Shown here: positions 17,244 to 45,697 of the stretch, piece after piece
Position numbering within the stretch: position 1 is the first letter of the stretch
Layout of the letters: every line of letters starts with the position of its first letter
DNA from: Bacteroidota bacterium
GTDB lineage: Bacteria; Bacteroidota; Bacteroidia; AKYH767-A; 2013-40CM-41-45
Direction: 5' to 3'
NCBI GenBank assembly: GCA_031417555.1
Contig: JANOVV010000028.1
Location: 77,984 to 141,983, forward strand
DNA: 64,000 nucleotides
Notes under the pieces: model-generated
Seen by the model: the letters and a program-made list of their open reading frames with translations, nothing else
Database searches by the model: none
What the model was told of the DNA's origin: nothing
Made by a program: the position numbers and the translations under genes

Positions 17244-17252
17244 ATTATAAAA

Positions 17253-17534: not shown

Positions 17535-17556
17535 AATATTTTTAAAATTAAAAACT

Positions 17557-18720: not shown

Positions 18721-18754
18721 AATATATTATTTCAATCGCATATATATAAAACTG

Positions 18755-19336: not shown

Positions 19337-19357
19337 TACATCTAAAAAATATTTTCA

Positions 19358-19762
19358 ATGATCAGATATTTCTTTATTGGCTTATTATTTGGTCTGGCAT
19401 TAATTAAGGGAGAAGCAATTTCCTGGTATCGTATGCAAGAGATGTTTCATTTTCAGGGATTTCAGATTTTCGGTTTTTTCTTTACTGCTGTACCGACAGC
19501 TGCATTGTTACTTTTCCTGATCAAAAAATTTAATGTTAAGACAACAGGTAAAGAGGAATTGAAACCGAAGAAAAAATATTTTAACAAAGGAACGGTGTAT
19601 GGATCCGCACTTTTTGGGATCGGCTGGGGATTGACAGGTGCTTGTCCGGGACCCATATATGTTCAAATAGGAAGCGGATATTTTATTTCAATAGTCTTAT
19701 TGCTAAGTGCTCTGGCCGGAACCTGGGTATATGCTTTTTTCCGAGAGAAGCTGCCGCATTAA
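19358..19762 (+). CDS. YeeE/YedE-family transporter, second half
   Basis: ...GWGLTGACPGP... motif. Confidence 0.65.
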   Translation: MIRYFFIGLLFGLALIKGEAISWYRMQEMFHFQGFQIFGFFFTAVPTAALLLFLIKKFNVKTTGKEELKPKKKYFNKGTVYGSALFGIGWGLTGACPGPIYVQIGSGYFISIVLLLSALAGTWVYAFFREKLPH

Positions 19763-20345
19763 ATATTTAAGTTTGATTTTTTTAATCATTTAGATTGGAT
19801 TGATATTCCATTCTTGATTCTAGTATTTTATTCTTTTAATATAGTGAAAAAGTTTCATGTCATTTTTTGTTACTTTTTGCTAAATAGTTTTTGAATTCTA
19901 TCTGATAATCTTGTAATCAAGTCCGATCCCATCAATTATTTCTCAGAAGTTTAATGAAATATGATATTTGAATTAATGTTCAATTCTTTGAAACAATTTT
20001 TTCATCTTTTGTTGTTAAAATGAATTTTAAATTTCATTTACCAATCTAAACCATACGTTTACAAAATTTGCTATATTATTTTTTCCTCAATCGATCTGTA
20101 ATAATTTGATAAAAACGATCTTCGTTGCTTAAAATTCAAATATTGCAAATCCTTAAACCCCACTATTTAAAGGCCTTTTGACGATTTTATTTCCAAAAAC
20201 TCGATTAATTTAGTTAAAATATTTTTTTTTAAAAAATTATCCTTGATAATATACTTGCATACATATTAAACCAATTTTAGAAAAGTTGTGATAATTCCTC
20301 ACAACCATATTTAATAATTAAAATAAACAAATATAAAATATACCC

Positions 20346-23300
20346 ATGCAAAAAATCACTACTCAACTTTTGTTTTATTGTTGTGAAAAAAGATTAACTC
20401 GAACAATTCCTGTAATCTTACTCCTCATTAATTTTGCAATTAATGTACCGGAATCATTTGGTCAAAGCCAATCGATTAGTACACCTGGTGTATCAATCGG
20501 AGGTAGTTCTACTACCGGCTCAGTATCGGCCGGAATTCCAAATTGTGTTCCACCAATATGTACAATTTCAGGAAGTACTTCAATTTGTCCTGGAACGGCA
20601 ACCACATTATGTGCGCCAGTAGGCCTTGCAGCTTATTCGTGGAGCACCGGTTCTACAGCTCAGTGTATTTCCGTTACAACACCCGGCACTTACATTGTAA
20701 CTATTACAGCTGTAGGTGGGTGTACGAGTACATGTAACATTACTGTAACTACAGCAACAGCACCAATATCAGGTAGCGGTTCTATTTGCAGTGGTGGTTC
20801 TACGCAATTATGTTCTGTGGCAGGTGCAAGTTCATATTCCTGGAGCACAGGAGCTACGACACAATGTATTACGGTAACAACAGCCGGTACTTATTCAGTC
20901 ACTACATGTATTAACGGTTGTTATATCACAAGCAGTAAAACAGTAACAGTTGGTTCTGTTTCTTGCTCAATCACTGGTAATAGTACAATTTGCTCGGGTG
21001 GATCCACTTCTCTATGTGCACCCTCCGGACTCTCTTCATATTCCTGGAGTACAGGAGCAACAACAAAATGTATTACTGTAAGTTCAGCTGGTACATATAC
21101 AGTAACTGTGTCTAACGGTGGATGTACAAGTAGTTGTAGTAAGACAGTAACAGTTCGACCAGCTTTAAATTGTACAATTACCGGAGCATCTTCTTTTTGT
21201 CAGGGGGGCTCTACTCAGCTTTGTTTGCCTACGGGTTATCAATCTTATTCATGGAATACAGGTGCAACTACACGTTGCATTACAGTAACATCCGCAGGAA
21301 CATATTATGGAAACGTTAATGATGGTACATGTAATAAAACTTGCAGCAAGGCTGTAACCGTTACATCTGTCAATTGTTCGATTACGGGAAGCAGTTCTAT
21401 TTGTCCGGGTACAACAACACAATTATGCGGACCGGCTGGACAATCATCTTATTCATGGAGCACAGGTTCAACATCACAATGTATAACAGTTGGTTCAAGT
21501 GGTACATATACATTAACAGTCACCAATGGAGGTTGTACTAGTAGTTGTTCTAAAACAGTTACTGTAGGTGCAATAAGTTGCAGTATTACTGGAAGCAGTA
21601 CAATTTGTGCCGGAGGCTCAAATCAATTATGTGCACCTGATGGAATGGCAACTTATTCGTGGAGTACCGGAGCAACAACACAATGTATTATTGTAAACAA
21701 TTCAGGTAATTATTCTGTTACCATCACCAATGGCAGTGGTTGCAGCAGTTCGTGTAGTAAATCAGTTTCTCTTAATAATACTTTAAGTTGTAATATAACA
21801 GGTACAACAGCAATTTGTCCGGATGGTACGACACAACTTTGTGCACCAGCAGGAATGGCAACTTATTCATGGAGTACAGGAGCAACTACACAATGTATAT
21901 TTGTAAGCTCTGCATCAACATATACTGTAACAGTTACTGATGGAAGTGGATGCAACAGCACTTGTTCAAAATCGGTAACAATAATTAATACAGATGATGG
22001 CAATGCATGTACTATAGATGCTTGTAATCAGCAAACGGGCGGCGTAACACATACTGCAGTAAATACAGATGATGGTAATGCCTGCACAGTTGATGCCTGC
22101 AATATTCAAACCGGAGTAATAACTCATACTTATGCAAGCATTGATGATGGTAATCCGTGTACCATTGATGCTTGTAATTCATTAACGGGTGGTGTTACGC
22201 ATACAGCTGTTAATACAGATGATGGCAATGCTTGTACAATCGATGCTTGTAATATTCAGACGGGAGTAATAACTCATACAGCAGTAAATACAGATGATGG
22301 CAATCCATGTACCGTAGATGCTTGTAATGTACAAACAGGAGGAATTACTCATACAGCGGTAAATACTGATGATGGCAATCAATGTACTATTGATGCATGT
22401 AATTCGTTAACGGGAGGTATTACACATACAGCAGTAAATGTTGATGATGCAAATGCATGTACAATTGATGTATGTAATTCTATAACAGGCATTACTCATA
22501 CAGCTGTTTCAACTAACGATAATAATGCTTGTACATACGATGGTTGTGATCCTGTAACAGGTGTATTTCACAATACAATCAACTCAGATGATAACAATCC
22601 GTGTACAATAGACAATTGTAATTCATTAACAGGAATTACTCATACAGCAGTCAACCCTGACGATGGCAATGTTTGTACGACGGATGGTTGTAATACGGCG
22701 ACAGGAGTATTTCATATTTCGGTTTCTGTAAATGATAACAACCTGTGTACAATTGACGGTTGTGATCCAATTACCGGCATATTCCACATATTAAAAAATA
22801 CGGATGATGGAAATGCTTGTACAATAGATGCCTGTAATAGTGTTTCAGGAGCGATTACGCATGTGCCTGTAAATATAAACGACAACAATGCTTGTACCAC
22901 TGATGCTTGCGACCCGATAACCGGAATCATTACATATGTATTGGTTTCTACTGAAGACGGCAATGCTTGTACAATAGATGGTTGTAATTCGATAACGGGT
23001 GTAACTCATGTTCCGGTTTCTACCAATGATAATAATGCCTGTACGTTTGACGGTTGTGATCCTGTGCTTGGAGTATTTCATAATACAATAAGTTCTGACG
23101 ATAACAATCCATGTACTTTAGATAATTGTAATCCGGTAACAGGTATTTTCCATACGGCAGTTGATCCAAACGATGGTAATGTTTGTACAACAGATGGTTG
23201 TAATACTGCAACAGGAGTATACCATATTTCGGTTTCAGTTAATGATAATAATCTATGTACAATAGATGGTTGTGATCCTGTTAACGGAATATTCCATATC

Positions 23301-26300
23301 TTAAAAAATACTGATGATGGAAATGCATGTACAATTGATGCTTGTAATTCTCTTACAGGTGCAATTACACATGTTCCGGTAGTAATAAATGATAACAATG
23401 CTTGTACGACAGATGCTTGTGATCCTGCTACCGGAGTAGTCACACATATTCAGCTTTTAACAGATGATGGCAATGCCTGTACAATTGATGATTGTAATAT
23501 TTTTACAGGGGTTACACATGTACCGGTATCCACTAACGACAACAATGCTTGCACGTTTGATGGTTGTGATCCGGTTTTAGGTGTATTCCACAATACGATT
23601 AGTTCAGATGATAATAATCCTTGTACAATAGATAATTGCAATGTTTCAACAGGTGTATTCCACACTCCAGTTAATCCGGATGATGCTAATGTTTGTACTA
23701 CGGATGGTTGTAATTCAATTACAGGAGTATTCCATATTTCACTTTTGACCAATGATAATAACTACTGTACGATTGATGGCTGTGATCCGATAACAGGAAT
23801 TTTTCATACTCCGGTAAATGCGGATGACGGCAACTCTTGTACGGAAGATAATTGTATTCCGGCAAATGGTTCGATTACTCATGTTCCATTCAATGTAAAC
23901 GATAACAATCCGTGTACAATTGATGCATGTAATCCTGCTTTTGGAAACATTACACATGTTCCGGTAATTACTGATGATGGCAATCCTTGTACAATTGATG
24001 CTTGTAATTCTTTCTCAGGAGTAGTTACGCATTTAGCGGTTATTATAAACGATAACAATGCTTGTACAATGGACGCTTGTGATCCATTTAACGGGAATAT
24101 TACACACATGGCAGTATTTATAGATGACGCTAATGCTTGTACCAACGATTTTTGTAATTCTATTACAGGAGGTATAACTCATCCGGCAATTATAATTAAC
24201 GATAACAACGCTTGTACTGTTGATGCCTGTGATCCTGCAACCGGAAATATTACACATGCCCAAATAATTACCGACGACGGAAATAAATGTACCATTGATG
24301 CATGTAATTCCTCTACCGGTGCAATTACGCATGTTGTTATTAATCCAAATGATAATAATCCTTGTACAGTAGATGCTTGTGATCCTATTACCGGAAATAT
24401 TACAAATATTCCCGGAATTACGGATGATGGTAATGCTTGTACAATAGATGCATGTAATCCGGCAACAGGTGCAGTTACACATGTTGTAAAAGATGTTGAC
24501 GACAACAATGCATGTACGGTTGATGCTTGTAATCCTTCTACCGGAAATATTACTCATACACTTGTAATTACCGACGACAGCAATGCGTGTACAGTTGATG
24601 CTTGTAATTCTGCAACCGGCGCAATCAGCCATGTTGTTGTTGATCCAAACGATAATAACGCTTGTACGGTTGATGCATGTAATCCTTCAACGGGAAATAT
24701 TACACATATACAAACAATTACCGATGATGGTAATGCCTGTACAATTGATGCTTGTAATACTGAAACCGGTGCTGTTACACATGTTGTTAAAAATGTAAAT
24801 GATAATAATGCTTGCACGGTCGATGCTTGTAACCCTTCCGACGGAAATATAACTCATACACTTATAATTACAGATGATGGCAATAAATGCACAGTGGATG
24901 CTTGTAATTCTGCAACGGGTGCAGTTACCCATGTAGTTAAAGATGTCGACGATAATAATGCATGTACTTTAGATGCTTGTGATCCTTCCGACGGAAACAT
25001 TACACATACACTTGGAATTACTGATGATGGCAATGCTTGTACTGTTGATGCCTGTAACTCTGCCACCGGAGCAGTAACCCATGTAGTAATTGATGTTGAT
25101 GATAGTAACGCATGTACAGAGGATGCCTGTGATCCTTCCAACGGAAATATTACACACACACTTGGAATTACTGATGATGGTAATGCTTGTACTGTTGATG
25201 CTTGTAATACGGCCACAGGAGCCGTAACGCACATGGTAATAGGTGTAGATGATAAGAATGAATGTACGGTAGATGCTTGTGATCCTGCAAATGGAAATAT
25301 TTCGCACAATGCAGTCATTACCGATGATGGTAATGCTTGTACAATCGATGCTTGTAATTCAGCCACAGGAGCAATAACACATGTGGTTATAAATGCAAGT
25401 GATGACAATGCTTGTACAATAGATGCTTGTGATCCTGCTTCAGGTAATATCACTCATATTACATTTAATACAAATGATGGTAATGCGTGTACAATCGATG
25501 GTTGTAACCCATTAACAGGAGAATTTCATATTCCGGTATCAACGGAAGATAACAACCTTTGTACTTTTGATGGTTGTGATCCTGTCCTTGGTGTTTTCCA
25601 TAATGCAGTTAACTCAAATGATAATAACTTATGTACAGCAGATGGTTGTAATTCGCTTACAGGAATTTTCCATACTACAATAGATCCTAATGATAACAAT
25701 GTTTGTACAACTGATGGTTGTAACACTTTAACCGGTGTTTTCCATATTTCAGCCTTAACAAACGACAATAACGCATGTACAATCGATGGTTGTGATCCGA
25801 TAACTGGTATTTTCCATACTCTTAAAAATGCTGATGATGGTAATGCTTGTACAATTGATGCTTGTAATACAGCAACAGGAGCAATAACACACGTTGTTGT
25901 TGTTACAAACGATAACAATGCTTGTACAGTTGATGCTTGCGATCCGGCTACAGGATTTATTACTCATAATGCAATTAGTATTGATGATGGTAATGCTTGT
26001 ACAGCTGATGCATGTAATACAACTACAGGTGCTATTACACATGTTGTTGCAAATACTAACGATAACAATGCATGTACAATAGATGCTTGTGATCCTGCTA
26101 CCGGATTCATAACTCATGCATTTATTAATACCGATGATGGCAATGCTTGTACAACTGATGCTTGTAATTCAGTTACCGGTTCAATTACACACGTTCCCGT
26201 TAATATCAGTGATAACAATGTATGTACTACCGATGCTTGTGATCCATTAACTGGATTTATCTTACATACAACTTTAAATCCCGATGACGGCAATGTTTGT

Positions 26301-29300
26301 ACTATTGATGCTTGTAATTCAATTACCGGAATAACACATGTTCAGGTTTCTTCAAACGATAATAACGCATGTACCTTTGATGGATGTGATCCGATACTGG
26401 GCATATTCCACAATACCATCAGCTCGGATGATAACAACCCTTGTACAATCGATAATTGTAATTCAATAACAGGAATATCTCATACTACTGTTAATCCTGA
26501 TGATGGCAATGTTTGTACAATAGATGCTTGTAACACAATAACAGGAGTAACTCATACTTCAGTCGCAACTAACGATAACAATGCATGTACTATCGACGGT
26601 TGTGATCCTGTTACCGGAATATTCCATATAGCTAAAAATACCGATGATGGTAATGCTTGTACCGTTGATGCATGTAATACTTTAACAGGTGCTATTACAC
26701 ACATTGTTGTAAATACAAATGACAACAATGCTTGTACCGTTGATGCTTGTGACCCTTCTACAGGATTTATTACTCACACAGCTATCAGTATTAATGATGG
26801 TAACGCTTGTACTGTTGATGCTTGTAATTCATCTACTGGTGATATTACTCATGTTCTTGTAAATGTAAACGACGGCAATGCATGTACTCTGGATGCTTGT
26901 GATCCTGTTACTGGCTTCATAACTCATAATGCTATCAGTATAAATGACGGCAATGCTTGTACTGTTGATGCTTGTAATTCAGCAAACGGCGACATTACGC
27001 ATGTGCTTGTAAATGTAAATGATGGTAATGCTTGTACAGCCGATATTTGTGATCCGGCCACAGGGTTTATTACTCATCCGTTTATAAATACTGATGATGG
27101 TAATGCATGTACAGTTGATGCCTGTAATTCAACTACTGGAGCTATCACACATGTTGTTGTAAATACAAACGACAACAACGCATGTACAATAGATGCTTGT
27201 GATCCTGCTACAGGATTCATAACTCATACAGTTATTAATACAGATGATGGTAATGCTTGTACTATTGATGCTTGTAATTCAGCTACAGGTTCAATTACAC
27301 ATGTCCTTGTTAATATTAACGATAACAATGCATGTACAACTGATGCCTGTGATCCAGCGACAGGATTTATCACTCATACATTTTTAAATCCTGATGATGG
27401 TAATGTTTGTACCATTGATGCTTGTAATTCAATCACCGGAATAACGCATGTTCAGGTTTCTTCAAACGATAACAATGTTTGTACATTTGATGGTTGTGAC
27501 CCAATAACAGGTGTGTTCCACAATACAATCAGCTCTGATGATAACAACCCTTGTACAATCGATAATTGTAATTCAATAACAGGAATATCACATACTTCAG
27601 TTAACCCTGACGATGGCAATGTTTGTACAATAGATGCTTGTAACTCAATAACAGGAGTAACTCATACTTCAGTTGCAACTAATGATAACAATGCATGTAC
27701 GATCGACGGTTGTGATCCTGTTACCGGTGTTTTCCATATCGCTAAAAACATAGACGATGGTAATGCATGTACAGCCGATGCTTGTAATTCAGCCACTGGT
27801 GCGATCACTCATGTTTTTGTTAATACAAACGACAATAACGCATGTACTGTCGATGCTTGTGATCCTGTTACAGGAATAATTACCCATGTTGTCATAAGTA
27901 TTGATGATAATAATGCATGTACAGCGGATGCTTGTAATTCAATCACAGGATTGGTTACTCATACCAATGTCATTACTGATGATGGCAACCCTTGTACGAA
28001 TGATGTTTGTAATCCTTTTACAGGCATAATTACTCATACAGCTACTATTACAGATGATGGTAATCCTTGTACAATTGATGCTTGTAACTCAGTTACAGGA
28101 GGAGTTACCCATACAGCTGTAAATACGGATGATGGTAATGCTTGTACTACAGATGCTTGTAATCCTGCAACTGGCGCAATTACTCATACAGCAGTTAATA
28201 TCGACGACAGCAACCCTTGTACAATTGATGCATGTAATTCTGTAACAGGAGGCATAACTCATACAGCTGTAAATACGGATGATGGAAATGCTTGTACAAC
28301 GGATGCTTGTAATCCTTCTACAGGTGCTATCACTCACATAGCAGTAGTTACTGATGATGGTAATGCTTGTACGGTTGATGCTTGTAATTCAAGTACTGGT
28401 GTAATCACTCATACAGCTTTGAATACGGATGATGGAAATGCTTGTACAACGGATGCTTGTAATCCTTTAACAGGTGCTATCACTCATACAGCAGTTGTTA
28501 TAGATGATAATAATGCTTGTACAGTTGATGCCTGTAATTCAGTAACAGGTGTAATAACTCATATTGCAAATCAACCAACCACTTGTACAATAACTGGTAA
28601 TAGTGATATATGTTTTTCAGGAAATACAACTTTATCTGTCTCGAATGTGGGATCATATTTATGGAGTACAGGTCAAACTACTTCATCAATAACTGTTACT
28701 TCTGCAGGTTTATACTCTGTAATTGTTACTAGCAACAACGGTTGCAGCAGTACTTGTTCACTTACAGTAACTTCTCATAATTGTGGAATTACTCTTAGAA
28801 AAACGCCGGATAAGTGTGAATTTCCTGATGGCGTTCCAACTTTAGTAAATTTCGAATATGTTGTAAAGAATAATTTGACAAGTGGTTTCAGTGCGTCAGG
28901 TATCTTAACAGATGATAATGGTACTCCGTTAAATAAATTGGATGATGTATTAGTTTGTAATTGGGGACCAATTATTCCCGGAGACAGTACAATTTGTTAT
29001 AAAGCATTTACAATATCAAGTACCTATACAAATATTGCAATAGCTTCCGGAACTTCCGGAGGAGCATCGGTTTCAGCAATTGCTACTGCTACTGTAAAGG
29101 GCGTGAATTGCAATTGTAATCTTAACTACCCCGACAACTCAAATTTACCTCGCTCTGCTGTAATTTTTAACGAAAGTGAAATTTTGAGAACCTCAGAACC
29201 AGGTCCAACATCTTGTGCTACTTTAGGATCAAAGATTAAACTTTGGTATAATGATGAACATGCTATGTTACTTGGTATTAAATCGGTTAGCGTAAAAACT

Positions 29301-30806
29301 TCTGGAGGTACAATTACAACAAACTACAATGTTTCTCCATACTCCGGTTCCCCTGGTTGTATTAGTAATCCTTTAATGGGAGATACAATAACATCAGGAG
29401 ATCAGGCGGCAAACGATTTAGCAGACGGTGGCGGTCGTCCGATAAGACCATTAATTTTCTTAACCGATCTTACTGTTAATGGTGCAAATAGCAGAATTGG
29501 CGACTGGCAACAAGGCGGAATTGGTATTTCTCCGACCGGTATATGTGGTTCCTGGAAAAGTGCAACTAAGCTAATTGATAAAACTAAAAACCCGCCTCTT
29601 GTAACTATTACAACTGATCCGAATCCTGCTAAAAATAATTGGAATCTTGGAAGTGGATCTGATACACCTGCTGAAGGATTTGCAAGCTTGAAAAATGAAG
29701 GTTATGGAACCGAAGTTTCATGGGATATCAATAGCCTGGGATTAATTCCGGGTCATGATTATCGTGTAGTGTTTATGGTTCACGATGGTGATCAAAATAA
29801 AACCGGGGGAGATGTAGGTGAGACTTGTACTACAATTCATATTCCTGATGGATTGTGTAATACATTTAACACACCTCCGCCACCACCTCCGCCATCTGAA
29901 AAAGTTTGTTACAAAGGAACTGCAAATACCTATGTAAGAGCAAGCCAATCATGGACAATTAATACAACTACGAATCAAGCAACCATTCGAACTACATTTT
30001 CAAAGAATTTTGTAGATAACACGTATGGTACTAATGCTATAAGCTGGCCTTCAGGACATACTTTTAGTAATCTGGTTGGTTCTGATCATGTTCAAATGGC
30101 ATTGTATGATGGTAACAACGTTAAGAAAATGGAATTCAAAGTAGATTATATTACTTCAAATAGTTCTGTTGCTTCAGGTTACAAATGTCTTGGAGTGGTA
30201 GGCGGTGAGGGTAGCATGTTATTAGGAAATGCATCTGATGTTGTTAGTGCAACAACTTCAATTGACCAAAACTTAAATACTTTTGGTTATGTATTAACTA
30301 CTAATTCTCCTGCGACAAACAGCAGCTATACTCCAAATGCAACGTATCCTAACTGGATTTATGATGTATGGTACGAAGTAACTGTTAATCTATCTGCATT
30401 TGGACCGGCCGGTTTCGGAAGACCACTTATAACGGCCATTCATGCAAGCCCAAGTAAGACAGGTAACAATACAGAGGTTATGGTAGATACAATTTGTGTA
30501 AATCCTCGACTTGCTTCCACTTCAGAAATGATTAACGAAAATAATTTAATGGTAAATGCTTACCCGAATCCATTTAGCACAAGTGCTATTATAGAATTCC
30601 ATACAAATGATAAAGCATCTCAGATTGTTCTGGAAGTTTATACACTCACAGGTGAAATAGTTACAACTCTGTTCAATGGTATTGCTGAGCCAGGTATTAA
30701 ATACAAATCGGAATTTAAAGGTGAGAATCTTCCAAATGGAATTTACATCTACCGATTGGAAAACGAAGATGGCATTGTCAATGGTAAATTGATATTAATG
30801 AAATAA
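20346..30806 (+). CDS. giant (3486 aa) T9SS type-A sorted cell-surface protein: ten or more N-terminal ~64-aa Cys-rich Ig-like repeats, about 90 tandem 24-25-aa two-Cys repeats, a unique C-terminal region, and a T9SS C-terminal domain
   Basis: N-terminal repeats C.ITG.S.IC.GG.T.LCAP.G...YSWSTGATTQCITV.S.GTYTVTV.NG.GC.S.CSK.VTV. Core repeats DDGNACTxDACNxxTGxxTHxxVNT. PPPPPPP linker. C-terminus ...YPNPFSTSAIIEF...NGIYIYRLENEDGIVNGKLILMK (Por_Secre_tail-like). Confidence 0.85.
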   Translation: MQKITTQLLFYCCEKRLTRTIPVILLLINFAINVPESFGQSQSISTPGVSIGGSSTTGSVSAGIPNCVPPICTISGSTSICPGTATTLCAPVGLAAYSWSTGSTAQCISVTTPGTYIVTITAVGGCTSTCNITVTTATAPISGSGSICSGGSTQLCSVAGASSYSWSTGATTQCITVTTAGTYSVTTCINGCYITSSKTVTVGSVSCSITGNSTICSGGSTSLCAPSGLSSYSWSTGATTKCITVSSAGTYTVTVSNGGCTSSCSKTVTVRPALNCTITGASSFCQGGSTQLCLPTGYQSYSWNTGATTRCITVTSAGTYYGNVNDGTCNKTCSKAVTVTSVNCSITGSSSICPGTTTQLCGPAGQSSYSWSTGSTSQCITVGSSGTYTLTVTNGGCTSSCSKTVTVGAISCSITGSSTICAGGSNQLCAPDGMATYSWSTGATTQCIIVNNSGNYSVTITNGSGCSSSCSKSVSLNNTLSCNITGTTAICPDGTTQLCAPAGMATYSWSTGATTQCIFVSSASTYTVTVTDGSGCNSTCSKSVTIINTDDGNACTIDACNQQTGGVTHTAVNTDDGNACTVDACNIQTGVITHTYASIDDGNPCTIDACNSLTGGVTHTAVNTDDGNACTIDACNIQTGVITHTAVNTDDGNPCTVDACNVQTGGITHTAVNTDDGNQCTIDACNSLTGGITHTAVNVDDANACTIDVCNSITGITHTAVSTNDNNACTYDGCDPVTGVFHNTINSDDNNPCTIDNCNSLTGITHTAVNPDDGNVCTTDGCNTATGVFHISVSVNDNNLCTIDGCDPITGIFHILKNTDDGNACTIDACNSVSGAITHVPVNINDNNACTTDACDPITGIITYVLVSTEDGNACTIDGCNSITGVTHVPVSTNDNNACTFDGCDPVLGVFHNTISSDDNNPCTLDNCNPVTGIFHTAVDPNDGNVCTTDGCNTATGVYHISVSVNDNNLCTIDGCDPVNGIFHILKNTDDGNACTIDACNSLTGAITHVPVVINDNNACTTDACDPATGVVTHIQLLTDDGNACTIDDCNIFTGVTHVPVSTNDNNACTFDGCDPVLGVFHNTISSDDNNPCTIDNCNVSTGVFHTPVNPDDANVCTTDGCNSITGVFHISLLTNDNNYCTIDGCDPITGIFHTPVNADDGNSCTEDNCIPANGSITHVPFNVNDNNPCTIDACNPAFGNITHVPVITDDGNPCTIDACNSFSGVVTHLAVIINDNNACTMDACDPFNGNITHMAVFIDDANACTNDFCNSITGGITHPAIIINDNNACTVDACDPATGNITHAQIITDDGNKCTIDACNSSTGAITHVVINPNDNNPCTVDACDPITGNITNIPGITDDGNACTIDACNPATGAVTHVVKDVDDNNACTVDACNPSTGNITHTLVITDDSNACTVDACNSATGAISHVVVDPNDNNACTVDACNPSTGNITHIQTITDDGNACTIDACNTETGAVTHVVKNVNDNNACTVDACNPSDGNITHTLIITDDGNKCTVDACNSATGAVTHVVKDVDDNNACTLDACDPSDGNITHTLGITDDGNACTVDACNSATGAVTHVVIDVDDSNACTEDACDPSNGNITHTLGITDDGNACTVDACNTATGAVTHMVIGVDDKNECTVDACDPANGNISHNAVITDDGNACTIDACNSATGAITHVVINASDDNACTIDACDPASGNITHITFNTNDGNACTIDGCNPLTGEFHIPVSTEDNNLCTFDGCDPVLGVFHNAVNSNDNNLCTADGCNSLTGIFHTTIDPNDNNVCTTDGCNTLTGVFHISALTNDNNACTIDGCDPITGIFHTLKNADDGNACTIDACNTATGAITHVVVVTNDNNACTVDACDPATGFITHNAISIDDGNACTADACNTTTGAITHVVANTNDNNACTIDACDPATGFITHAFINTDDGNACTTDACNSVTGSITHVPVNISDNNVCTTDACDPLTGFILHTTLNPDDGNVCTIDACNSITGITHVQVSSNDNNACTFDGCDPILGIFHNTISSDDNNPCTIDNCNSITGISHTTVNPDDGNVCTIDACNTITGVTHTSVATNDNNACTIDGCDPVTGIFHIAKNTDDGNACTVDACNTLTGAITHIVVNTNDNNACTVDACDPSTGFITHTAISINDGNACTVDACNSSTGDITHVLVNVNDGNACTLDACDPVTGFITHNAISINDGNACTVDACNSANGDITHVLVNVNDGNACTADICDPATGFITHPFINTDDGNACTVDACNSTTGAITHVVVNTNDNNACTIDACDPATGFITHTVINTDDGNACTIDACNSATGSITHVLVNINDNNACTTDACDPATGFITHTFLNPDDGNVCTIDACNSITGITHVQVSSNDNNVCTFDGCDPITGVFHNTISSDDNNPCTIDNCNSITGISHTSVNPDDGNVCTIDACNSITGVTHTSVATNDNNACTIDGCDPVTGVFHIAKNIDDGNACTADACNSATGAITHVFVNTNDNNACTVDACDPVTGIITHVVISIDDNNACTADACNSITGLVTHTNVITDDGNPCTNDVCNPFTGIITHTATITDDGNPCTIDACNSVTGGVTHTAVNTDDGNACTTDACNPATGAITHTAVNIDDSNPCTIDACNSVTGGITHTAVNTDDGNACTTDACNPSTGAITHIAVVTDDGNACTVDACNSSTGVITHTALNTDDGNACTTDACNPLTGAITHTAVVIDDNNACTVDACNSVTGVITHIANQPTTCTITGNSDICFSGNTTLSVSNVGSYLWSTGQTTSSITVTSAGLYSVIVTSNNGCSSTCSLTVTSHNCGITLRKTPDKCEFPDGVPTLVNFEYVVKNNLTSGFSASGILTDDNGTPLNKLDDVLVCNWGPIIPGDSTICYKAFTISSTYTNIAIASGTSGGASVSAIATATVKGVNCNCNLNYPDNSNLPRSAVIFNESEILRTSEPGPTSCATLGSKIKLWYNDEHAMLLGIKSVSVKTSGGTITTNYNVSPYSGSPGCISNPLMGDTITSGDQAANDLADGGGRPIRPLIFLTDLTVNGANSRIGDWQQGGIGISPTGICGSWKSATKLIDKTKNPPLVTITTDPNPAKNNWNLGSGSDTPAEGFASLKNEGYGTEVSWDINSLGLIPGHDYRVVFMVHDGDQNKTGGDVGETCTTIHIPDGLCNTFNTPPPPPPPSEKVCYKGTANTYVRASQSWTINTTTNQATIRTTFSKNFVDNTYGTNAISWPSGHTFSNLVGSDHVQMALYDGNNVKKMEFKVDYITSNSSVASGYKCLGVVGGEGSMLLGNASDVVSATTSIDQNLNTFGYVLTTNSPATNSSYTPNATYPNWIYDVWYEVTVNLSAFGPAGFGRPLITAIHASPSKTGNNTEVMVDTICVNPRLASTSEMINENNLMVNAYPNPFSTSAIIEFHTNDKASQIVLEVYTLTGEIVTTLFNGIAEPGIKYKSEFKGENLPNGIYIYRLENEDGIVNGKLILMK
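21990..28570 (+). repeat. ~6.6 kb of in-frame tandem 72-75-nt repeats (about 90 copies) encoding the DDGNxCTxDxC(N/D)xxTGxxTH unit
   Basis: Direct reading. Repeated ...gatgatggtaatgcttgtac...gatgcttgtaat... units. Neighbouring copies are often more than 85% identical. Confidence 0.9.
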
Positions 30807-30822
30807 CAACCATGAAACCCTG

Positions 30823-30857
30823 AAAAAATGCCTCCAATTTCGGAGGCATTTTTTTTG
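30823..30857 (+). terminator. rho-independent terminator of the giant gene
   Basis: aatgcctcc-aatttc-ggaggcatt followed by a T8 run. Confidence 0.8.
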
Positions 30858-32137
30858 TGGTATCTAGAATATGGCTGCGAGATTAAAACCGAAAAGTTCT
30901 CTAACAAGATGACAATTTCAAATGCTTATAGAGGGATGAGAATGTAATGCTAAAAGATGCTATGCATTTTTCAGAATGAAACTTTTAGCTTTACTTTTTT
31001 CCCTTCTTTTTTTAAACAACGGTCATCTCTTTAGAGAGCTTTTCGGTCAATTGTTAATGTCTTTTTAGCTTAATAATTTTTCAACTATTTTTGTTCAAAT
31101 AGTCTTTTTGTATTGTGTAGAATATTACTGCGAGATTAAAACCGAAAAGTTCTCTGGCGAGATGACAATTTCGTATGCTTATAGGGGGATGAGAATGTAA
31201 TGCTAAAAGATGCTATGCATTTTTCAGAATGAAACTTTTAGCTTTACCTTTATCCCCTTCTTTTTTTAAACAACGGTCATCTCTTTAGAGAACTTTTCGG
31301 TTAATTCGAAATGTCTCTTTAGCTTAATAATTTTGCAACTATTTTTGTTCACAATACCTTTTTTGTATTGTGTAGAATATTACTGCGAAATTAAAAACCG
31401 AAAGGTTTTCTGGCGAGATGACAATTTTGTAGACTTATTGGGGGATGAGAATGTAATGCTAAAAGATGCTATGCATTATTCAGAATGAAACTTTTAGCTT
31501 TACTTTTTTCCCTTCTTTTTTTAAACAACGGTCATCTCTTTAGAGAGCTTTTCGGTCAATTGGTAATGTCTTTTTAGCTTAATAATTTTTCAACTGTTTT
31601 TGTTCAAATAGTCTTTTTGTATTGTGTAGAATATTACTGCGAGATTAAAAACTTAAAGGTTCTCTGGCGAGCAATGTCATTAAGTTAAGCTACGGGTCAT
31701 GTTTTTTTTGCCACAAAAACACAAAAACACTAAAAAAAACAAAAATTAAATACCAACAATTTTGTGTCTTAGTGTTTTTGTGGCATTAGATCCTTAACTT
31801 AATGACATTGCTCTGGCGAGATGACAATTTCGTATGCTTATAGGGGGATGTGAGTGTAATGCTAAAAGATGCTAAGCATGTTTCAGAATGAAACTTTTAG
31901 CTTTACCTATTGCCCTCTTCTTTTTCTAAACATGGGTCATCTCTTTAGAGAGCTTTTCGGTTAATTAGAAATGTCTCTTAAGCTTAATAATTTTTCAACT
32001 ATTTTTGTCCACATTGCCTTTTTTGTATTGTATAGAATATTACTGCGAGATTAAAACCGAAAAGTTCTCTGGCGAGATGACAATTTTGTAGACTTATTGG
32101 GGGATGAGAATGTAATGCTAAAAGATGCTATGCATTA
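30858..32137. repeat. intergenic tandem array of five ~254-bp non-coding structured repeat units (period 253-257 bp, ~90% identity); the last unit is truncated and unit 4 is interrupted by a MITE
   Basis: Unit starts (tgcgagattaaaacc...) at 30876, 31129, 31384, 31638 and 32044. Each unit has a long-range inverted repeat ccgaaaagttctct..gagatgac /~140 nt/ gtcatctc..agagagcttttcgg and an inner hairpin gctaaaag...cttttagc. No ORF of 60 aa or more on either strand. Confidence 0.85.
31672..31810. mobile_element. 139-bp miniature inverted-repeat element (MITE) inserted into repeat unit 4
   Basis: Perfect 18-19-bp terminal inverted repeats (caatgtcattaagttaag ... cttaacttaatgacattg). Internal 13-bp hairpin (gccacaaaaacac/gtgtttttgtggc). 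Flanked by a 10-bp direct duplication ctctggcgag (31662-31671 and 31811-31820) that is present only once in uninterrupted units. Confidence 0.8.
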
Positions 32138-32154
32138 TACCCGATACTCGACTC

Positions 32155-32796
32155 TCACTTAAACCTCCCTTTAAACTCTCTTTTAAATTCCAGAAAATCC
32201 GGTATTGAAACATTTTTAACATAGGAATTGTCGGGATGATTTAAAATGTATTCCTGGTGGTAATCTTCTGCCGGATAAAATTTTGAAAAAGATTTTACCT
32301 CTGTAACAATTTTATCTGAATATTTTTTAGATTCTGATAAGCGTTTAATTTCAGATTCGATAATTTCTTTTTCTTTTTCATTGCGATAGAAAGCAACAGA
32401 ACGGTATTGTGTACCACGGTCGTTGCCTTGTCTGTTAAGTGTGGTAGGATCCATACTCGTAAAAAATGCAGAGACTAAGGTCGCATAAGTGATTTTTGAA
32501 GGATCGTAATATACCTGTACAACTTCAGCATGTCCCGTATTTCCATTGCATACATTTTCATAATTCGGATTAGGATCTGTTCCTCCTGAATAACCCGATA
32601 CGGCATCTCTTACACCTTCTAGGCTTTGAAAAACAATTTCCGAATGCCAGAAACACCCTTCACCAAAAGTTGCTATTGCTTCCTTAGAACCGGGATTGCC
32701 CTTGATGCCTGCTGGAATAGTTTCATTCTTAGTATGAGTTTGTGCACACGAATAAAAAGTGGCAAATGAAATTAATACTATCAATATACTTTTCAT
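32155..32796 (-). CDS. msrA: peptide-methionine (S)-S-oxide reductase MsrA with a signal peptide (periplasmic)
   Basis: GCFWHSE active-site motif (GCFW..E) and ...GYSGG.... N-terminal signal MKSILIVLISFATFYSCAQ. Confidence 0.85.
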   Translation of the reverse strand: MKSILIVLISFATFYSCAQTHTKNETIPAGIKGNPGSKEAIATFGEGCFWHSEIVFQSLEGVRDAVSGYSGGTDPNPNYENVCNGNTGHAEVVQVYYDPSKITYATLVSAFFTSMDPTTLNRQGNDRGTQYRSVAFYRNEKEKEIIESEIKRLSESKKYSDKIVTEVKSFSKFYPAEDYHQEYILNHPDNSYVKNVSIPDFLEFKREFKGRFK

Positions 32797-32821
32797 AATC
32801 TTAATTTTTTAAAATTGGTTT

Positions 32822-33358
32822 TTATTTAGAACTAACCGGAGGTTTTCCTCCTTCGGGAACAAAAATAAGTGCATCCGAATTCATGCAATATCTTTTACCG
32901 GTAGGAGCCGGGCCATCATCGAAAACATGACCGAGGTGTGAGCCGCTTTTACTGTCTACAACTTCTATACGTTCCATGCCTATACTCCCGTCTTTTATCA
33001 AACGAACTGCATCAGGGTTTATAGGTGAATAAAAACTTGGCCAACCTGTACCCGAATTAAATTTAGCTTCTGAACTGAATAATGGCTGCAAAGTAGCCGC
33101 TGAATAGTAGGTTCCTTTTTCGTAAAAGTGGTCGTATTTTCCTGTGCCCGGTCTTTCCGTTCCTTTATTCCTTAGTATATAATATTGTTTGTCTGTAAGT
33201 CTTGCTTTCCATTCAGCATCACTCATTTGCATCGGATAAATGGTTGTTTTTTCAGCAAGAGGAGGATCCGGATATTTTGCATTTTTAGATTGTGAAAATG
33301 AACAACTGTTATTTAGAAAAATAAATGCTGTTAAGAGAATGGATGTCAGTGTTTTCAT
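32822..33358 (-). CDS. msrB: peptide-methionine (R)-S-oxide reductase MsrB with a signal peptide
   Basis: ...GTGWPSF... and HLGHVFDDGP...RYCMNS motifs (catalytic Cys in RYCxN). Signal peptide. Confidence 0.85.
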   Translation of the reverse strand: MKTLTSILLTAFIFLNNSCSFSQSKNAKYPDPPLAEKTTIYPMQMSDAEWKARLTDKQYYILRNKGTERPGTGKYDHFYEKGTYYSAATLQPLFSSEAKFNSGTGWPSFYSPINPDAVRLIKDGSIGMERIEVVDSKSGSHLGHVFDDGPAPTGKRYCMNSDALIFVPEGGKPPVSSK

Positions 33359-33524: not shown

Positions 33525-34268
33525 AAACCAATACATAGCAAAAACAACCCTTTTTTAAAAAAATCCAGGATTCAGTTTTCCCTAAATTTTCATTATCGTT
33601 TGAATTAATTTTAATTTTCAGTCATTCAAAAAGAATTTTTCAAAAACTGTTTGAGTAGATCGTTTTTCGACAATTCATATAAAAGTAAATGTTAGAAAAT
33701 TATATTATTTGAAAGTATTGTGAAAGGATATGGCTACAAAAACTTTTCTTTTTACTTATTAATTGGAATTTGAAACTGTAATAAATTTAAAAAAATGCAA
33801 ATCACTTTTTTGCCTTTTTAAATCTCTGAAGATGTATTAAAGTGTAAGAAATGTAAAGCTTAGTGATATTTTCTGTGAGAATGGAAATATTTTATCGAAT
33901 AAAAACTGCTTTTAGTTTTCACGACAGCCTTGTTTAGTGTTAAATGGCTTAAATAGACTTCCAATTCTATTTTTCTACATGGTTCTATATTAGAAATTAC
34001 GTTTGTAATAAATGGCTTTTAATCGAGTTTTTAGGTTGCATCATTTGTCAGATACTGGCGTACATATCGATGAATTAGTGTTTTTTGAATGGACATACAT
34101 CCAAAATAAGGGACCATCTAAATAGCATTAATCGAAAGATAATAATAGAAAGTACTCTTCGCCGAAAACGAGAGAGTTATAAAGATTAAGGACATTATGC
34201 CCGAATCATTACATACATCAGTCAGACATTTATGTCAGGACATTAAAAGAAAGGCCTTCGTCGTCAAG

Positions 34269-37200
34269 ATGAAAAAGTTTTTCCTTTATTTTTCTGCCAT
34301 ACTTATGTTACTTTCTTTTGATGCAAAAGCAGCCAATGAAACATTTACTTCAGGTGCTTTTATTATCAACATGGGAGTAACACCTCAAACCGTTGCAAAT
34401 GGTTTGAAGCCTTATGGATTAATTTACGACCTGATTAAAAACAATGATGTACCTATTAAGTGGGTCATCGGACAATCAAAAGTTAAAGATGGAGTCGATT
34501 TTACATACAATGGTAATAGTTACCGCGGTGGTACATTTATTATTAACTCTGAATATAGAAGTGCTGCCGTAAATGCAAAGATCGCAGCATGGCAGGCAAA
34601 GGGCGTTGTTGGAGTTACAACTATAAGCCCAATGACATTAAATGTTACAGTTACATTACAGGCTGTTCCAAATTGGGCCATGGATGCTCAGAACGGAAAA
34701 ATAGCTATTGATTTTTTAATTGCAGCGGAAATTCCGGCATCTGCTTATTACTTTCGAACTCCTGCAACTCTTAATGCTTGTGATAATCTTTATGTAATGC
34801 CTCATGCAGATCCGAAGTGGTCAACTCACAGTAACCTTTATTTCTGGAATAAAAATAACAGAGGTGCTATCTGGGGCGGATGCCATGCAGTAAGTGTTAT
34901 GGAAGGTCCGAGTTGTGTCAACCCGGCGAATCCAACTCAGAATCTGAAATTTCTTACGACCGGTGGAATGGTTCCATTTGGTTCCCATGCAAATGGTACA
35001 CCGCCCTACAGCTATTCGAATTTAAGTGATCCGGTTTTTCAGTTTATGGGTTCTGAAGATGCGGCACACCAGGGCGGTTCTGAGCAAATTTACCTTCCAT
35101 TAAAAGCAGGAAGTACATGGAATCCAAGTGTGAAAATTGGTTGTTATGATCCGACACAATTTGATGTGCCTGCGAAATCTAATGGACCTGCAGTTCTAAC
35201 CGCATATGGATATGCATTTAATGATACTACACGTGGTGTGGTAATGTATGAAAGCGGACACAACATTGGTGGGACAGCACCGGAAAATGTGGCAGCACAA
35301 CGAATATTCTTTAACTGGTCATTTATCGGAGCTTCTAATAAAGAACCACGGGTAACATATTCGAATATTCCAACAAAGATGAATAGTAATGTACTGTATC
35401 CCAATTTTACGGCATCGGCAACTTCGCCGGTTGGATTAAGTGTATTCACCTATAAGTGGAGTTCTACCATTGGTGGTGTTTTTACTGCACCAACAAGTGC
35501 AGTTACAAATTATACAGCACCTGCAGTCGGTACGCCAACTATTGCAAAAATCATTTGTAAGGTTACCGATAATTGTGGGCGATATGCATTAACAGAGTTT
35601 AGTGTATTATTCATGCCGCCGCCTGCAGCTCCTGTTGCAGTTAATGATACAATTAGATTTCCAAATCTTTGCAGTGCATCCACACAAACTATTAATGTTC
35701 TTACGAATGATAATGACATTAATCTGGATATGACCACAACAATTTCTTTTTTGGGCGGTGGTAATCATGGAACTTTTACTAACAATGGAGGAGGAAGTGT
35801 TACATATACTCCGGGATGGCTCTTCCAGGGATCTGATACAATGAGGTACCAGGTATGTGATAGTACAGCACTTTGTCACCAGGCGACTATTGTTGTAACT
35901 ACAGGTTATACAGGGCCGTGTGCGATGACAACGTATCAAAGAACGGATACAGCACGGGCTGATACTGTACAATTTCAGCAAGGTATTGCAGGTCCAAATA
36001 GTTCACTTGGATATCCTGATGCAATCAACGGTAGTAATTCAAATACTGCAAGATGGGGAAGTGACAATGATTCATTAATATTAAGACTCGATAATCAGAT
36101 CAGTACCGGTGATACGGTTCAGTTCCGAATGGCCGCTGATAATAACAACTGTATTGATTTTACTCTAATGGGTTCACTTACCTCTGGTGGTTTTGTACCC
36201 GGTGTAAATTCATTAAATGGCACGATAGCTTCCAGTACCCAAAAAATATACAATTGGTATAATTTCATTGTTACCGGAAATACACGCTATGTAAAAATAC
36301 TTGTCAGGAATACAGCCTGTGACAATAAAATTGACCTTGATGCCATTCGTGCAAATTACCGTTACTGCACAAGTAATGTTCCTGTTGCAAATAAAGACAA
36401 TGCAACAACAGCAGCAAATGTTGCTATTACAACAAATGTAAAAACCAATGATACAGACCCTGCCGGTGGTGCACTTTCAGTAACAATTGTTGATGGTCCA
36501 AATAATGGAACTGCCGGTGTTAATGGAGCAGGAAATATTGTTTATACTCCGGACTCTGCTTTTTTCGGAGCGGATACCTTAATTTATAAGGTATGTAATT
36601 CAAGTTGCCTTTGTGATACTGCCTATGTAATTTATGATGTACAAACCCATCCACCTTGTGGAGCAGGAGTTCCTTCCTATTATAGAAATGGGAATGCAAC
36701 AAGTGTTCCTTCAAGTTTAGGCGTGACCAATCCAAACGGAGCAATTGGAATTCCTGACCAGGTTGACGGAGGTAATGGACAATCTGCAAAGATTAATAAT
36801 GTTGTCAATGATTATATCGTAATGGATCTCACAGATACTGTTTACTCCGGCGATACTGTTGTTGTTCGTATTGCTCCTGATAACAACAGTGCAAATACAA
36901 TAAGAGTACAGGCAAATCTAACTAATGCCTGGGGTTCACCTTCGACAAGTACAGATTTTAATTTACCTGCAGCTAATGGAAAAATTTATTCAAATTATAA
37001 TTTAATACTGACCGGCAATGCAAGATATATAAGAGTTATACAAATAACCACGACTAATAACGTAGATGTAGATGCGGTGAGTTACGATTACTGGTACTGT
37101 GGTATTATGCCAAATAATCCGCCCGTAGCCATAGATGATTCTGTAACTACAAATGTCAATAGAGCGGTGTTTAATAATGTAAAAGCAAATGATTCGGATC

Positions 37201-40200
37201 CCGACGGGAATTCAATAACTCAAAGTATTATAAGTCCTGCTGCATCAAACGGTACAGCGGTAGTTTCCGGAACAGGTATTGTATATACTCCAAATTTTGG
37301 ATTCATCGGTAAAGACACAGTAACTTATAAAATTTGTGACGGTGGTACACCTACATTATGTGATACAGCAATTTTAATTATTACGATCAATGCCGGTCCA
37401 CCTGTGGCAATAGTTAATAACAGCACCGTTAATTCAAATTCGTTTATAAATGTAAACGTACAGGCAAACGATACCTTAGCGGTAACGAGCTATTCTTATA
37501 CTACATCGCTAATGCCGTTAATACTTCCGCCATCAAATGGAACGGCAATATTAGTCGGTAACAACATTCAATATACTCCAAATGCAAATTTCACAGGTGT
37601 TGATTCGCTTGTTTACCAATTATGTGACAATGGAAGTCCGGTCGCCTGCGATACTGCTATAATGTACATTACAGTTACAAACCAACCACCGGTTGCAAAC
37701 AGGGATACAGTAACAACGAGTGCTTGTAACGCTATAATAGTTAGTGCAGTGAACAACGATACAGATCCTGAAAGTGGCACATTGACAATCACGGCTGTTT
37801 CAGTTCCTATTCATGGTACTGCAGTAATATCAAATAACAAAGTAGTATACACACCAACTTCATCACCTGTTTATACCGGTCTCGATTCACTTACTTATAC
37901 AATTTGCGATAATGGAAATCCGTCTCAATGTGTGGCTACAGGTAAAATTGTAATCACAATAAATTCTGTTAATCCGCCAAGTAATCCGCCGAATGCAGTA
38001 GACGATATTGATAGTACGTATATAAACCAGGATATATACCTCACTGTTTTAGCCAACGATTCCGATCCTGATCTTGATTCTATCCAGGTAGATTCAACTG
38101 CAACCGGACTTGTTTTACCATTACATGGAACAATTCACTATCAGCCAGGCAACCAGATTCGTTATGTGCCAAATACAGGCATAGCATTGCCTGATAGTTT
38201 TGAATATAAGGTTTGCGATATGCACAACAATGGAGCAGGGTGTATTAATATTATCGACGCATGTTCTGTAGCCATGGTCTATGTTAACACTTTAAATCGT
38301 CGACCTGCATCAAATGATAATTATGCTTATACAATTAATACTGTCGCTATCAGCAACCAGGTTGGACAAAACGATTATGAACCAGATGGCCAGCCAATGA
38401 CATATACAGCTCTCAATGGACCTTCATTCGGAGGAATAGTTTTTAATTCCGATGGAACATATACTTATACGCCGGATGGATTTTCTACGGGATTAATTAC
38501 GATTGATTATACCGTGTGTGATGATGCTGCAATAACTTTATGTGATACATCCACATTATATATAACAGTGGACATAACAAATGTACCGCCGAACTTAGAG
38601 CAGGATACAGTGTATTGTGCCGGTATTACTCCGACCAATGGAGATGTATCAACCAATGACATGGATCCGAACGGTAATCTGGATCCGAACGGATTTACAT
38701 TGCTGAGTGGTCCGAATAATGGTAGTATGACATTTAATACTGACGGAACTTTTACCTTCACTGCTGACACTGGATTTTTCGGAATTGATTATGTCTTTTA
38801 TGAAGCATGTGATTTAGGTACTCCTTCTATGTGTTCTTCTTCAATGCTTGTTATTTATGTAATAAAAACAGCTCCGATAACTGTTAATGAAAATGTGACT
38901 GTTTTTGAAGATAGCGTATTAACCGTTCCTGCTGTCACCGGTATTTTATCGAATGGAGATTTTGATCCTAATGGATTGAGTCTGTTTGTTGATATTTCAC
39001 TTACTTTAAATCCAGTAAACGGAAATGCAGTAGTTTGGGATGACGGAAGGTTTACCTATACACCGTTCCCGGGTTTTAACGGTTCTGATTTCTTTATCGT
39101 TGATGTATGCGATGATAGTTCATCACTTGCTTCTATTTGTTCTGTTGATACAATTTTTGTTACCGTTACCCCTTTTAACGATCCTCCGATTCTTGATAAT
39201 GAAAATATTTCAGTCAGTGAAGATACACCGTTCAACGGTGACTTAACCGACGCAGGTGATTCCGATCCTGATACGACAGCACTTACTGCCAATACGGTTC
39301 CTGTTGTTGATGTATCAAATGGTACACTTCTCGTTAATGCAAACGGAACATACACGTATACACCAGATCCCGATTACAATGGAAGCGATTTGGCTGTGAT
39401 AAATATTTGCGATGCAGGTACACCAATGCCGGCTAAGTGTAAAAATGATACTATATTCATTACGGTAACTCCATTTAATGATCCGCCGGTTATTGATAAT
39501 GAAACGATATCCACCAATGAAGACACATCGGTCAACGGTGATCTTACTGATGCAGGTGACTCTGATCCTGATGGAACTGCTCTTACTGCGAATACAGTTC
39601 CCGTAGTTGCACCAACGAATGGTTCTATTATCCTGAATGCAAACGGTACTTATACATATACGCCAAATCTAAATTTTAATGGTACAGATATAGTTGTAGT
39701 TAGCATTTGTGATGCAGGTACACCGATGCCGGCCAAATGTGTAAACGATACCATCTTCATCACCGTCGATCCAATAAATGATACACCTGTAATCGATAAT
39801 GAAACGATCTATGTTGATGAGAATACAGTATTCAATGGTGATCTTACCAATGCAGGTGATTCCGATCCGGATACAACTGCTCTTATTGCAAATACAGTCC
39901 CGGTAATTGATGTAACAAATGGTGTCCTGGTTGTAAATGCAAATGGTTCATATACATATACACCAAATCTAAATTATAATGGCCCTGATACTGCCGTAAT
40001 AAACATCTGTGATGCAGGTACACCAATGCCGGCGATTTGTGTGAATGATACAATATTCATAACAGTAGCTCCATTTAATGATCCGCCAGTAATTGATAAC
40101 GAAAATATTTCAACGAACGAAGATACACCTGTTAACGGTGATTTGACCGATGCCGGAGATTTTGATCCTGATACTACTGCTCTAACAGCTAATACTGTTC

Positions 40201-44687: not shown

Positions 44688-44732
44688 TTAAATTAATTTT
44701 TGAATAATACAGTTGAAATAAACAATAAGAAA

Positions 44733-45680: not shown

Positions 45681-45697
45681 ATTAATCCAACAATAAT

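Follow-up and report, generated by a model that had tools for sequence, protein, structure and literature searches.

The DNA between two convergent genes in a member of the Bacteroidota (assembly GCA_031417555.1, contig JANOVV010000028.1, positions 77,984 to 141,983) raises the question of whether a row of similar, strongly foldable repeats represents small RNA (sRNA) genes, copies of a mobile element or a tandem repeat of an ordinary kind. The stretch analysed, hereafter the window, is 64 kb in length and is numbered from its first letter. Judged by the relatives of its MsrA, the source is an uncultured, Ferruginibacter-like member of the Chitinophagaceae. The repeats occupy the gap between the terminator of a giant gene (30829-30858) and the stop codon of msrA (32155), and these coordinates confirm a preliminary description, made from the letters alone, which had the array filling that interval. 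The array is, with a probability of about 0.6, an intergenic tandem repeat of long period that is young and specific to its lineage, a bacterial minisatellite or variable-number tandem repeat (VNTR). Judged from sequence, it would be a young minisatellite of palindromic units, a familiar type of element at a new site; no function is indicated for it, and a reading as non-coding RNA is unsupported.

Tandem Repeats Finder (TRF) reported a tandem repeat at 30865-31671 with a period of 254 bp, 91% matches and a score of 1354. A repeat search placed five in-register head-to-tail copies at spacings of 253, 256, 403 and 256 bp, and a profile of the unit matched along the array by nhmmer with E-values from 1e-87 to 4e-33. 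The head-to-tail 254-bp period described earlier is therefore real, but the five units at about 90% identity become four full units (253, 255, 254 and, after excision of an inserted MITE (miniature inverted-repeat transposable element), 257 bp) and one truncated unit of 104 nt, or 4.4 copies, with pairwise identities of 86-93% between the full units. The features of the interval are:

30829..30858, no strand assigned: bidirectional intrinsic terminator, read from sequence (A-run, TGCCTCC/GGAGGCA stem, T8)
30865..31117, + strand: unit 1 (U1), 253 bp, hairpin core 30887-31048 (TRF, repeat search, own cuts, nhmmer and covariance model)
31118..31372, + strand: unit 2 (U2), 255 bp, hairpin core 31140-31302 (own cuts, folds, nhmmer and covariance model)
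31373..31626, + strand: unit 3 (U3), 254 bp, hairpin core 31396-31557 (own cuts, nhmmer and covariance model)
31627..32032, + strand: unit 4 (U4), 257 bp without 31672-31820; 5' arm interrupted; the most diverged, with 18 private changes
32033..32136, + strand: unit 5 (U5), truncated to its initial 104 nt, which carry the 5' arm and the apical part but no 3' arm
32137..32154, no strand assigned: unique spacer of 18 nt between the array end and the msrA stop codon; the relatives' homology stops at 32152-32159
32155..32796, - strand: msrA (PF01625 family), facing the giant gene in convergent orientation; its terminator now lies beyond the array

Each 254-bp unit is composed of a foldback palindrome of ~163 nt and a spacer of ~91-92 nt. 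The units had been described as non-coding and this was upheld, there being no conserved open reading frame (ORF) in the array: the longest ORF with a start codon is of 51 amino acids (aa), no frame stays unbroken and units do not share their frames. A tRNA/tmRNA scan found no gene.

The age of the array can be read from the msrA loci of relatives, given here with the identity of MsrA to that of the window, the distance from msrA to the terminator or the next gene and what lies beside msrA:

Window: MsrA is the query; about 1.29 kb; the array lies between msrA and the terminator
L058/L059: MsrA 87%; 6 nt; the same terminator and C-terminal coding sequence of the giant gene, 72% identical to window 30006-30857
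L057: MsrA 93%; 22 nt; terminator as in the window, with ~27 nt from the end of the giant ORF (96% identity to window 30780-30859), followed by sulfur-transporter genes
L030: MsrA 77%; 91-bp gap; a convergent gene with a type IX secretion system (T9SS) tail, and an unrelated A/T-rich hairpin in the gap
L028 and L032: MsrA 84% and 93%; gap not comparable; other genes after msrA

The preliminary description had left open whether the unit also occurs in related genomes; none was detected by nhmmer at E<=10 in any of the relatives' loci compared (L028, L030, L032, L057 and L058/L059). Since relatives have msrA directly followed by the shared terminator and no unit, the compact state is taken as ancestral and the array as gained in the lineage of the window. 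In the ancestral arrangement so reconstructed, 6-22 nt at most lay between the msrA stop codon and a bidirectional terminator serving both genes, and the predicted terminator at 30829-30858 (TGCCTCC-AATTTC-GGAGGCA, then T8, with the look of a textbook intrinsic terminator) is common to the giant T9SS-cargo gene and, ancestrally, to msrA. Presence or size of the locus thus differs between close relatives while the flanks are kept. This would make it a clean, datable case in which a minisatellite arose in the space separating a gene from its terminator while sister lineages kept the ancestral site empty, although its significance beyond this genome is little.

Two further contigs of the same species, L001 and L002, derive from two other sequencing runs and encode an identical MsrA. 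Both carry the same array-msrA junction and end 28 nt into U5, presumably because at least two copies share the next k-mer, the usual behaviour of a de Bruijn assembler. The locus breaks short-read assemblies, and this might raise the suspicion that the array is itself an assembly artefact, either a collapsed or an over-expanded repeat. However, the copies differ by 7-14% at fixed positions in a coherent period-2 pattern, one copy carries the MITE with a clean target-site duplication and the msrA junction was reproduced in two independent runs, and an artefact is therefore very unlikely. The locus would be usable as a strain-typing (VNTR) marker for the lineage.

The distribution of differences between copies indicates how the array grew. 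Nine informative sites split U1 and U3 from U2 and U4, and four are common to U3 and U5, as against two sites for the 12|34 split and none for 14|23. This period-2 pattern (13 sites versus 2 and 0) indicates at least one growth step by duplication of a two-unit block of ~509 bp. The higher-order pattern and the 104-nt truncated end copy are both signs of array dynamics. At its left end the array merges with the T-run of the terminator, the sequence being TTTTTTTTGTGGTATC-TAGAATAT at the terminator and CTTTTTTGTATTGTG-TAGAATAT at unit ends. Under the minisatellite reading, a single foldback-containing sequence, possibly MITE-like, would have landed or arisen beside this T-run and then multiplied through slipped-strand mispairing or unequal recombination. 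Stalling of replication at the long hairpin could favour slippage, and TTTTTTGT, present at the terminator tail and at each unit end, could supply microhomology for the first duplication. One copy was subsequently hit by the IS4-family MITE.

Intergenic VNTRs of Wolbachia, with periods of 105-141 bp, internal hairpins and x.3 copy numbers, offer the nearest parallel; their authors assume slipped-strand mispairing triggered by hairpins or palindromes and, as a further process, suggest concerted evolution (PMC3287509). VNTR-141 and VNTR-105 resemble the present array in being non-coding, intergenic and head-to-tail, in having periods of at least 100 bp and fractional copies, and in carrying hairpin palindromes in each period, and in both systems presence or size varies between close relatives (PMC3287509). 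The window unit differs in being longer (254 bp), with about two-thirds of it forming one nested palindrome where Wolbachia has a 23-bp hairpin, and its copies are more diverged (86-93% identity as against 98-99%).

A second question concerns the hairpin, the feature that had suggested an RNA. The outer stems named in the preliminary description are present, CCGAAAAGTTCTCT and GAGATGAC pairing with GTCATCTC and AGAGAGCTTTTCGG, as is the inner hairpin GCTAAAAG/CTTTTAGC, and the fold is far beyond chance. The outer stems were found to enclose ~110 nt and not the ~140 nt reported. The outer helix comprises 25 pairs (AACCGAAAAGTTCTCT-GGC-GAGATGAC with GTCATCTC-TTT-AGAGARCTTTTCGGTT), inside which lie a symmetric internal loop, an inner helix of 24 pairs and two small apical hairpins; the inverted arms are 26-27 nt long, 85-93% complementary and 108-109 nt apart. 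Folding of U2 (255 nt) as RNA gave -80.5 kcal/mol on the + strand (z -8.5 versus shuffles) and -74.7 kcal/mol on the - strand (z -7.9 versus shuffles), whilst the 170-nt hairpin core folded with DNA parameters gave -38.6 kcal/mol (z -9.4). That the palindrome folds about equally on both strands had gone unmentioned in the preliminary description. The unit profile also matches its own reverse complement by nhmmer, and this, together with the extreme fold of both strands, makes the structure a property of the DNA sequence that indicates no single transcribed strand. The arms of neighbouring units can pair equally well across the 92-nt spacer. A structured DNA element, one of the identities initially put forward, is compatible with both strands and the DNA-parameter fold being equally extreme, but no function is indicated.

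Comparison of the copies gave no positive sign of selection on structure. Paired cells amounted to 96%, versus 42-54% with the partners slid. The RNAalifold covariation term was +0.44; a double, compensatory change was present in one of 70 pairs and 11 pairs were broken in at least one copy, and covariation was not above chance, its score being matched by 247 of 500 shuffles. Variable columns made up 15.5% of the stems, 26% of the internal loops and 21% of the spacer, with no significant difference. One-sided changes on the + strand produced G-U in eight cases and A-C in four (p=0.39). A difference between units that keeps the pairing had been taken as a hint of selection. Such a difference exists, at alignment columns 34:177 (U-G in U1, U3 and U4, U-A in U2), but it is one-sided and has no statistical weight, and the hint drawn from it was not sustained, with covariation no better than in shuffles and the stems not preferentially conserved. 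A fold with z near -8 and a few G-U-compatible differences are typical of any young palindromic repeat and should not be taken as evidence of an RNA gene.

Signals of transcription bear on the possibility that the units are young orphan sRNA genes on the + strand, each with its own promoter (TATTTTTG, ~45 nt upstream of the next hairpin) and specifying a long-hairpin RNA of ~200 nt. The Bacteroidota -7 promoter motif has the consensus TAnnTTTG, and TATTTTTG, a box of this kind, occurs at the identical position in U1, U2 and U4. The + strand also folds slightly better than the - strand by the energies given above, its one-sided changes favour G-U over A-C and the apical region is near-invariant. 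However, the box is mutated in U3, no -33 TTTG is found at the proper spacing from it, and by our estimate a -7-like motif is expected by chance about 0.2 times per unit per strand. Sigma-70-like promoter sites numbered two against 5.7 expected and were rarer than in shuffles. A consensus scan of 30700-32300 returned no terminator-like site on either strand, a negative to be treated with caution given that the same scan overlooked the evident terminator at 30829-30858. The + strand continues after the hairpin with UCAAUUG or UUAAUUC and has no U-run there. The eight-to-four ratio is not significant, covariation is nil, and the unit is absent from relatives whose MsrA is 87-93% identical. Searches of Rfam, which had been proposed for classifying the units, matched no family at the gathering score in the whole window and gave only chance-level matches at E<=10 in 30000-33000.

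Tandem sRNA genes such as LhrC1-5 of Listeria, PrrF1/2 of Pseudomonas and OmrA/B of E. coli each have a promoter and an intrinsic terminator and are conserved across species. The likeness lies in several similar structured non-coding units standing side by side in one intergenic region, whereas the window units have no demonstrable promoter, terminator or conservation and are absent in the nearest relatives. The multicopy sRNA array suggested at the outset is accordingly unsupported, the lone -7-like box standing without an Rfam family, covariation, a terminator or a homologue in the relatives and collections searched, and orphan sRNA genes are considered unlikely.

On the - strand, the direction of msrA, each complete hairpin is followed by four to five U and then AAUCU or AAUUU, a weak terminator-like tail. 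This raises the alternative of a terminator-like or 3'-untranslated element in which hairpin and UUUU(U)AAUCU terminate or stabilize the msrB-msrA transcript in the manner of SPRITE or REP sequences. The array is suitably placed directly 3' of msrA, 18 nt past its stop codon, exactly where the terminator sits in relatives. SPRITE, BOX and REP are precedents for repeats with roles at the RNA level, and SPRITE looks like a Rho-independent terminator (PMC3184786), a likeness that the window unit shows weakly on its minus strand. Nevertheless, one hairpin would suffice for such a role, leaving 4.4 copies unexplained; U5, the copy nearest msrA, has no 3' arm and is thus unable to fold into the hairpin alone; and the U-run is short and, as noted, the consensus scan gave no terminator-like site. 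A role of this kind is therefore doubtful. Since the array now stands between msrA and its terminator, the msrB-msrA message probably extends at its 3' end into the minus strand of the array, which would be transcribed passively. A minus-strand RNA-seq signal would be expected from such read-through alone and would not by itself be a sign of an sRNA.

The palindrome could alternatively belong to a family of mobile foldback elements or MITEs dispersed elsewhere in the genome, with the locus representing either a cluster formed by repeated insertion or a single insertion that was amplified. The 26-27-nt inverted arms with their 85-93% complementarity, the size of the palindrome (163 bp), which is typical of MITEs, and the appearance of the unit at a site that is empty in relatives all fit this proposal. 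Dimers of transposable elements have seeded satellites in Drosophila, and thus tandem arrays in eukaryotes (PMC5932611), and seeding by such a dimer is a possible origin of the window array as well. Yet 91 nt of each period are non-palindromic spacer, conserved to the same degree as the palindrome, and the amplified unit was therefore not the palindrome alone. The target-site duplication is likewise not clear: the palindrome is flanked as ...ATTAAAA|CCG...CGG|TTAATT in U2 and U4, or by TCAATT in U1 and U3, and the two-sided TTAA may be a duplication or part of the palindrome.

Dispersed copies, which such a family would imply, were sought in several collections. The rest of the 64-kb window contained no further unit by exact pattern, nhmmer or the hairpin covariance model, and the covariance model found nothing beyond the array in the window, L001, L028, L030 and L032. 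Among 185,579 species genomes a degenerate pattern covering both arms gave 25 single matches in unrelated taxa, all chance 23-mers, against about 17 expected by chance on our estimate. In JGI metagenomes the 25-mer of the 3' arm had no match and the apical 19-mer identified five loci with matches of only 20-28 nt, none of them real. Pattern scans of IMG/VR returned no match to the unit and no partner insertion sequence (IS) with these ends. The scans of GTDB, JGI and IMG/VR were by exact pattern and would miss diverged copies. No unit was matched among plasmids and phages by blastn in distant mode. Eight short ORFs of the array, by exact look-up, and a 72-aa open frame, searched as protein in place of a DNA homology search, were absent from a collection of 15 billion proteins.

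Correia (NEMIS), ERIC/IRU and RUP elements are likewise intergenic: they measure 100-160 bp, form imperfect palindromes bounded by terminal inverted repeats and can fold as RNA or DNA, but their tens to hundreds of copies are dispersed and not arranged in tandem (PMC3184786). The window has one known tandem locus, with a spacer within the period. BOX of Streptococcus pneumoniae (boxA-boxB(n)-boxC) shares a tandemly iterated module, an intergenic position and a predicted stable RNA structure (PMC3184786), whilst its modules are of about 45-60 bp and the composite is dispersed genome-wide; the window unit has no sequence similarity to it and no dispersal was seen. The Correia/ERIC-like family amplified in place that the preliminary description had listed among its candidates comes closest to the evidence in its amplification in place and its arms, but falls short in that no dispersed copy and no partner IS were found. 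Membership of a mobile foldback family is accordingly regarded as improbable.

The minisatellite reading is itself opposed by several points. The source of the seed unit was not identified by the searches made, and since the source DNA searched was the 64-kb window, dispersed copies may exist in the rest of the genome. Selection tests on 4.4 young copies have little power. Copies hardly vary in the apical 51 nt and the 3' arm, possibly through constraint rather than recent homogenisation. The GC content of the array is 31.8%, versus 20-29% in most other intergenic regions of the window, and is mildly atypical for junk spacer. The recurrence of the -7-like box in three units belongs here also. 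A newborn family of ~200-nt long-hairpin sRNAs (or a newborn mobile foldback element), arisen within the last species-level divergence and under amplification, is judged quite unlikely. If a newborn sRNA family were nonetheless true, the locus would show, as is rarely seen, a multicopy non-coding RNA locus being born at a terminator, and unit-length transcripts, if found, would provide an example of the de novo origin of multicopy sRNAs.

The MITE reported earlier in one copy was verified as a 139-bp element in U4 with perfect termini, which are those of an IS4-family element, and a target-site duplication:

31662..31671, no strand assigned: target-site duplication CTCTGGCGAG, left copy
31672..31810, no strand assigned: IS4-family MITE, 139 bp, perfect 18-bp termini CAATGTCATTAAGTTAAG / CTTAACTTAATGACATTG, internal hairpin 31709-31785
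31811..31820, no strand assigned: target-site duplication CTCTGGCGAG, right copy

The same termini are present in 19 IMG/VR contigs, on 210-bp MITEs and on elements of 1622-1653 bp. Full-length copies were recognized as pairs of inverted termini 1622-1653 bp apart in L042, L044 and L055, and the L044 copy encodes a 461-aa DDE transposase (PF01609) scoring 171.7 bits on NF033592, the NCBIfam IS4-family model with a cutoff of 115. The 18-bp termini of the window MITE are thus identical to those of 1.62-1.65-kb elements with an IS4-family DDE transposase, whereas with the 210-bp MITE copies of IMG/VR it has only the termini in common, its 139-bp interior bearing no relation to theirs. The target duplication is of 10 bp (CTCTGGCGAG) in the window and of 9 bp in four other copies. 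The copies compared were window 31662-31820, L040 5648-5857, L042 877-2529, L044 1545-3166 and L055 10627-12248. Palindromes at the insertion sites include AAAAGAGCC-TTTG-AGGCTCTTTT in L040, AAAAGCAGGC-TTAGC-GGCCTGCTTTT in L044 and tTCTC-TGGC-GAGAt in the window. From four independent sites, the IS4-family element appears to insert with a 9-10-bp duplication centred on short palindromes or the loops of terminator hairpins. IS10 has a symmetric hotspot, NGCTNAGCN, its target duplication being centred on a short palindrome, and the 9-10-bp duplication of the window element is likewise so centred; the L044 duplication GGCTTAGCG fits the IS10 hotspot NGCTNAGCN.

Several other identities were considered for the array and rejected. 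A CRISPR array, already discounted in the preliminary description for want of unique spacers, was set aside on the same ground, as the entire 254-bp period repeats; the ten neighbouring proteins scanned contained no Cas domains. These proteins also included no integrase, and by inspection the core sites misfit the RYYYAAC/GTTRRRY of an integron attC array. A retron non-coding RNA was rejected as no reverse transcriptase was present among the same ten proteins. The interior of the unit is itself palindromic and not merely bounded by inverted repeats, unlike an invertible promoter. Pseudogene fragments were dismissed on the basis of the broken frames, which are not conserved between units.

Outside the array, the segment downstream of msrA is variable. 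The 91-bp gap of L030 (10643-10733) is a palindrome of simple repeats, (AAAAATC)n ... (GATTTTT)n, and represents another way of supplying both genes with one bidirectional terminator. In L057 (700-781) the terminator and the last ~27 nt of the giant gene lie directly against a sulfur-transporter gene (window 19358-19762), from which it follows that ~11 kb (window 19764-30779), including the entire 3486-aa gene, was deleted in the L057 lineage. The giant, adhesin-like gene is, judged from these loci, a presence/absence polymorphism. A cluster of PALP, JAB, ThiS, ThiF-rhodanese and sulfur-transporter genes (window 15877-19762; L028 5266-9213) is syntenic beside msrAB in relatives, and the segment from this cluster to msrA differs in all relatives examined (L028, L030, L032, L057 and L058). 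These comparisons suggest that the region downstream of msrA is a hotspot at which genes are gained and lost.

In the window, two giant genes of near-equal size bracket msrAB, at 20346-30806 (3486 aa) and 34197-44687 (3496 aa). The first, on the + strand, converges on msrA (- strand) and msrB; its C-terminal part matches Dicty_CTDC repeats and closes with a Por_Secre_tail domain. After the second come PorP/SprF and OmpA-family genes (44700-47881). Two 199-aa ORFs lie antisense (- strand) within the first giant gene at 24033-24632 and 24854-25453, 821 bp apart, and are probably artefacts of its internal tandem repeats and not genes.

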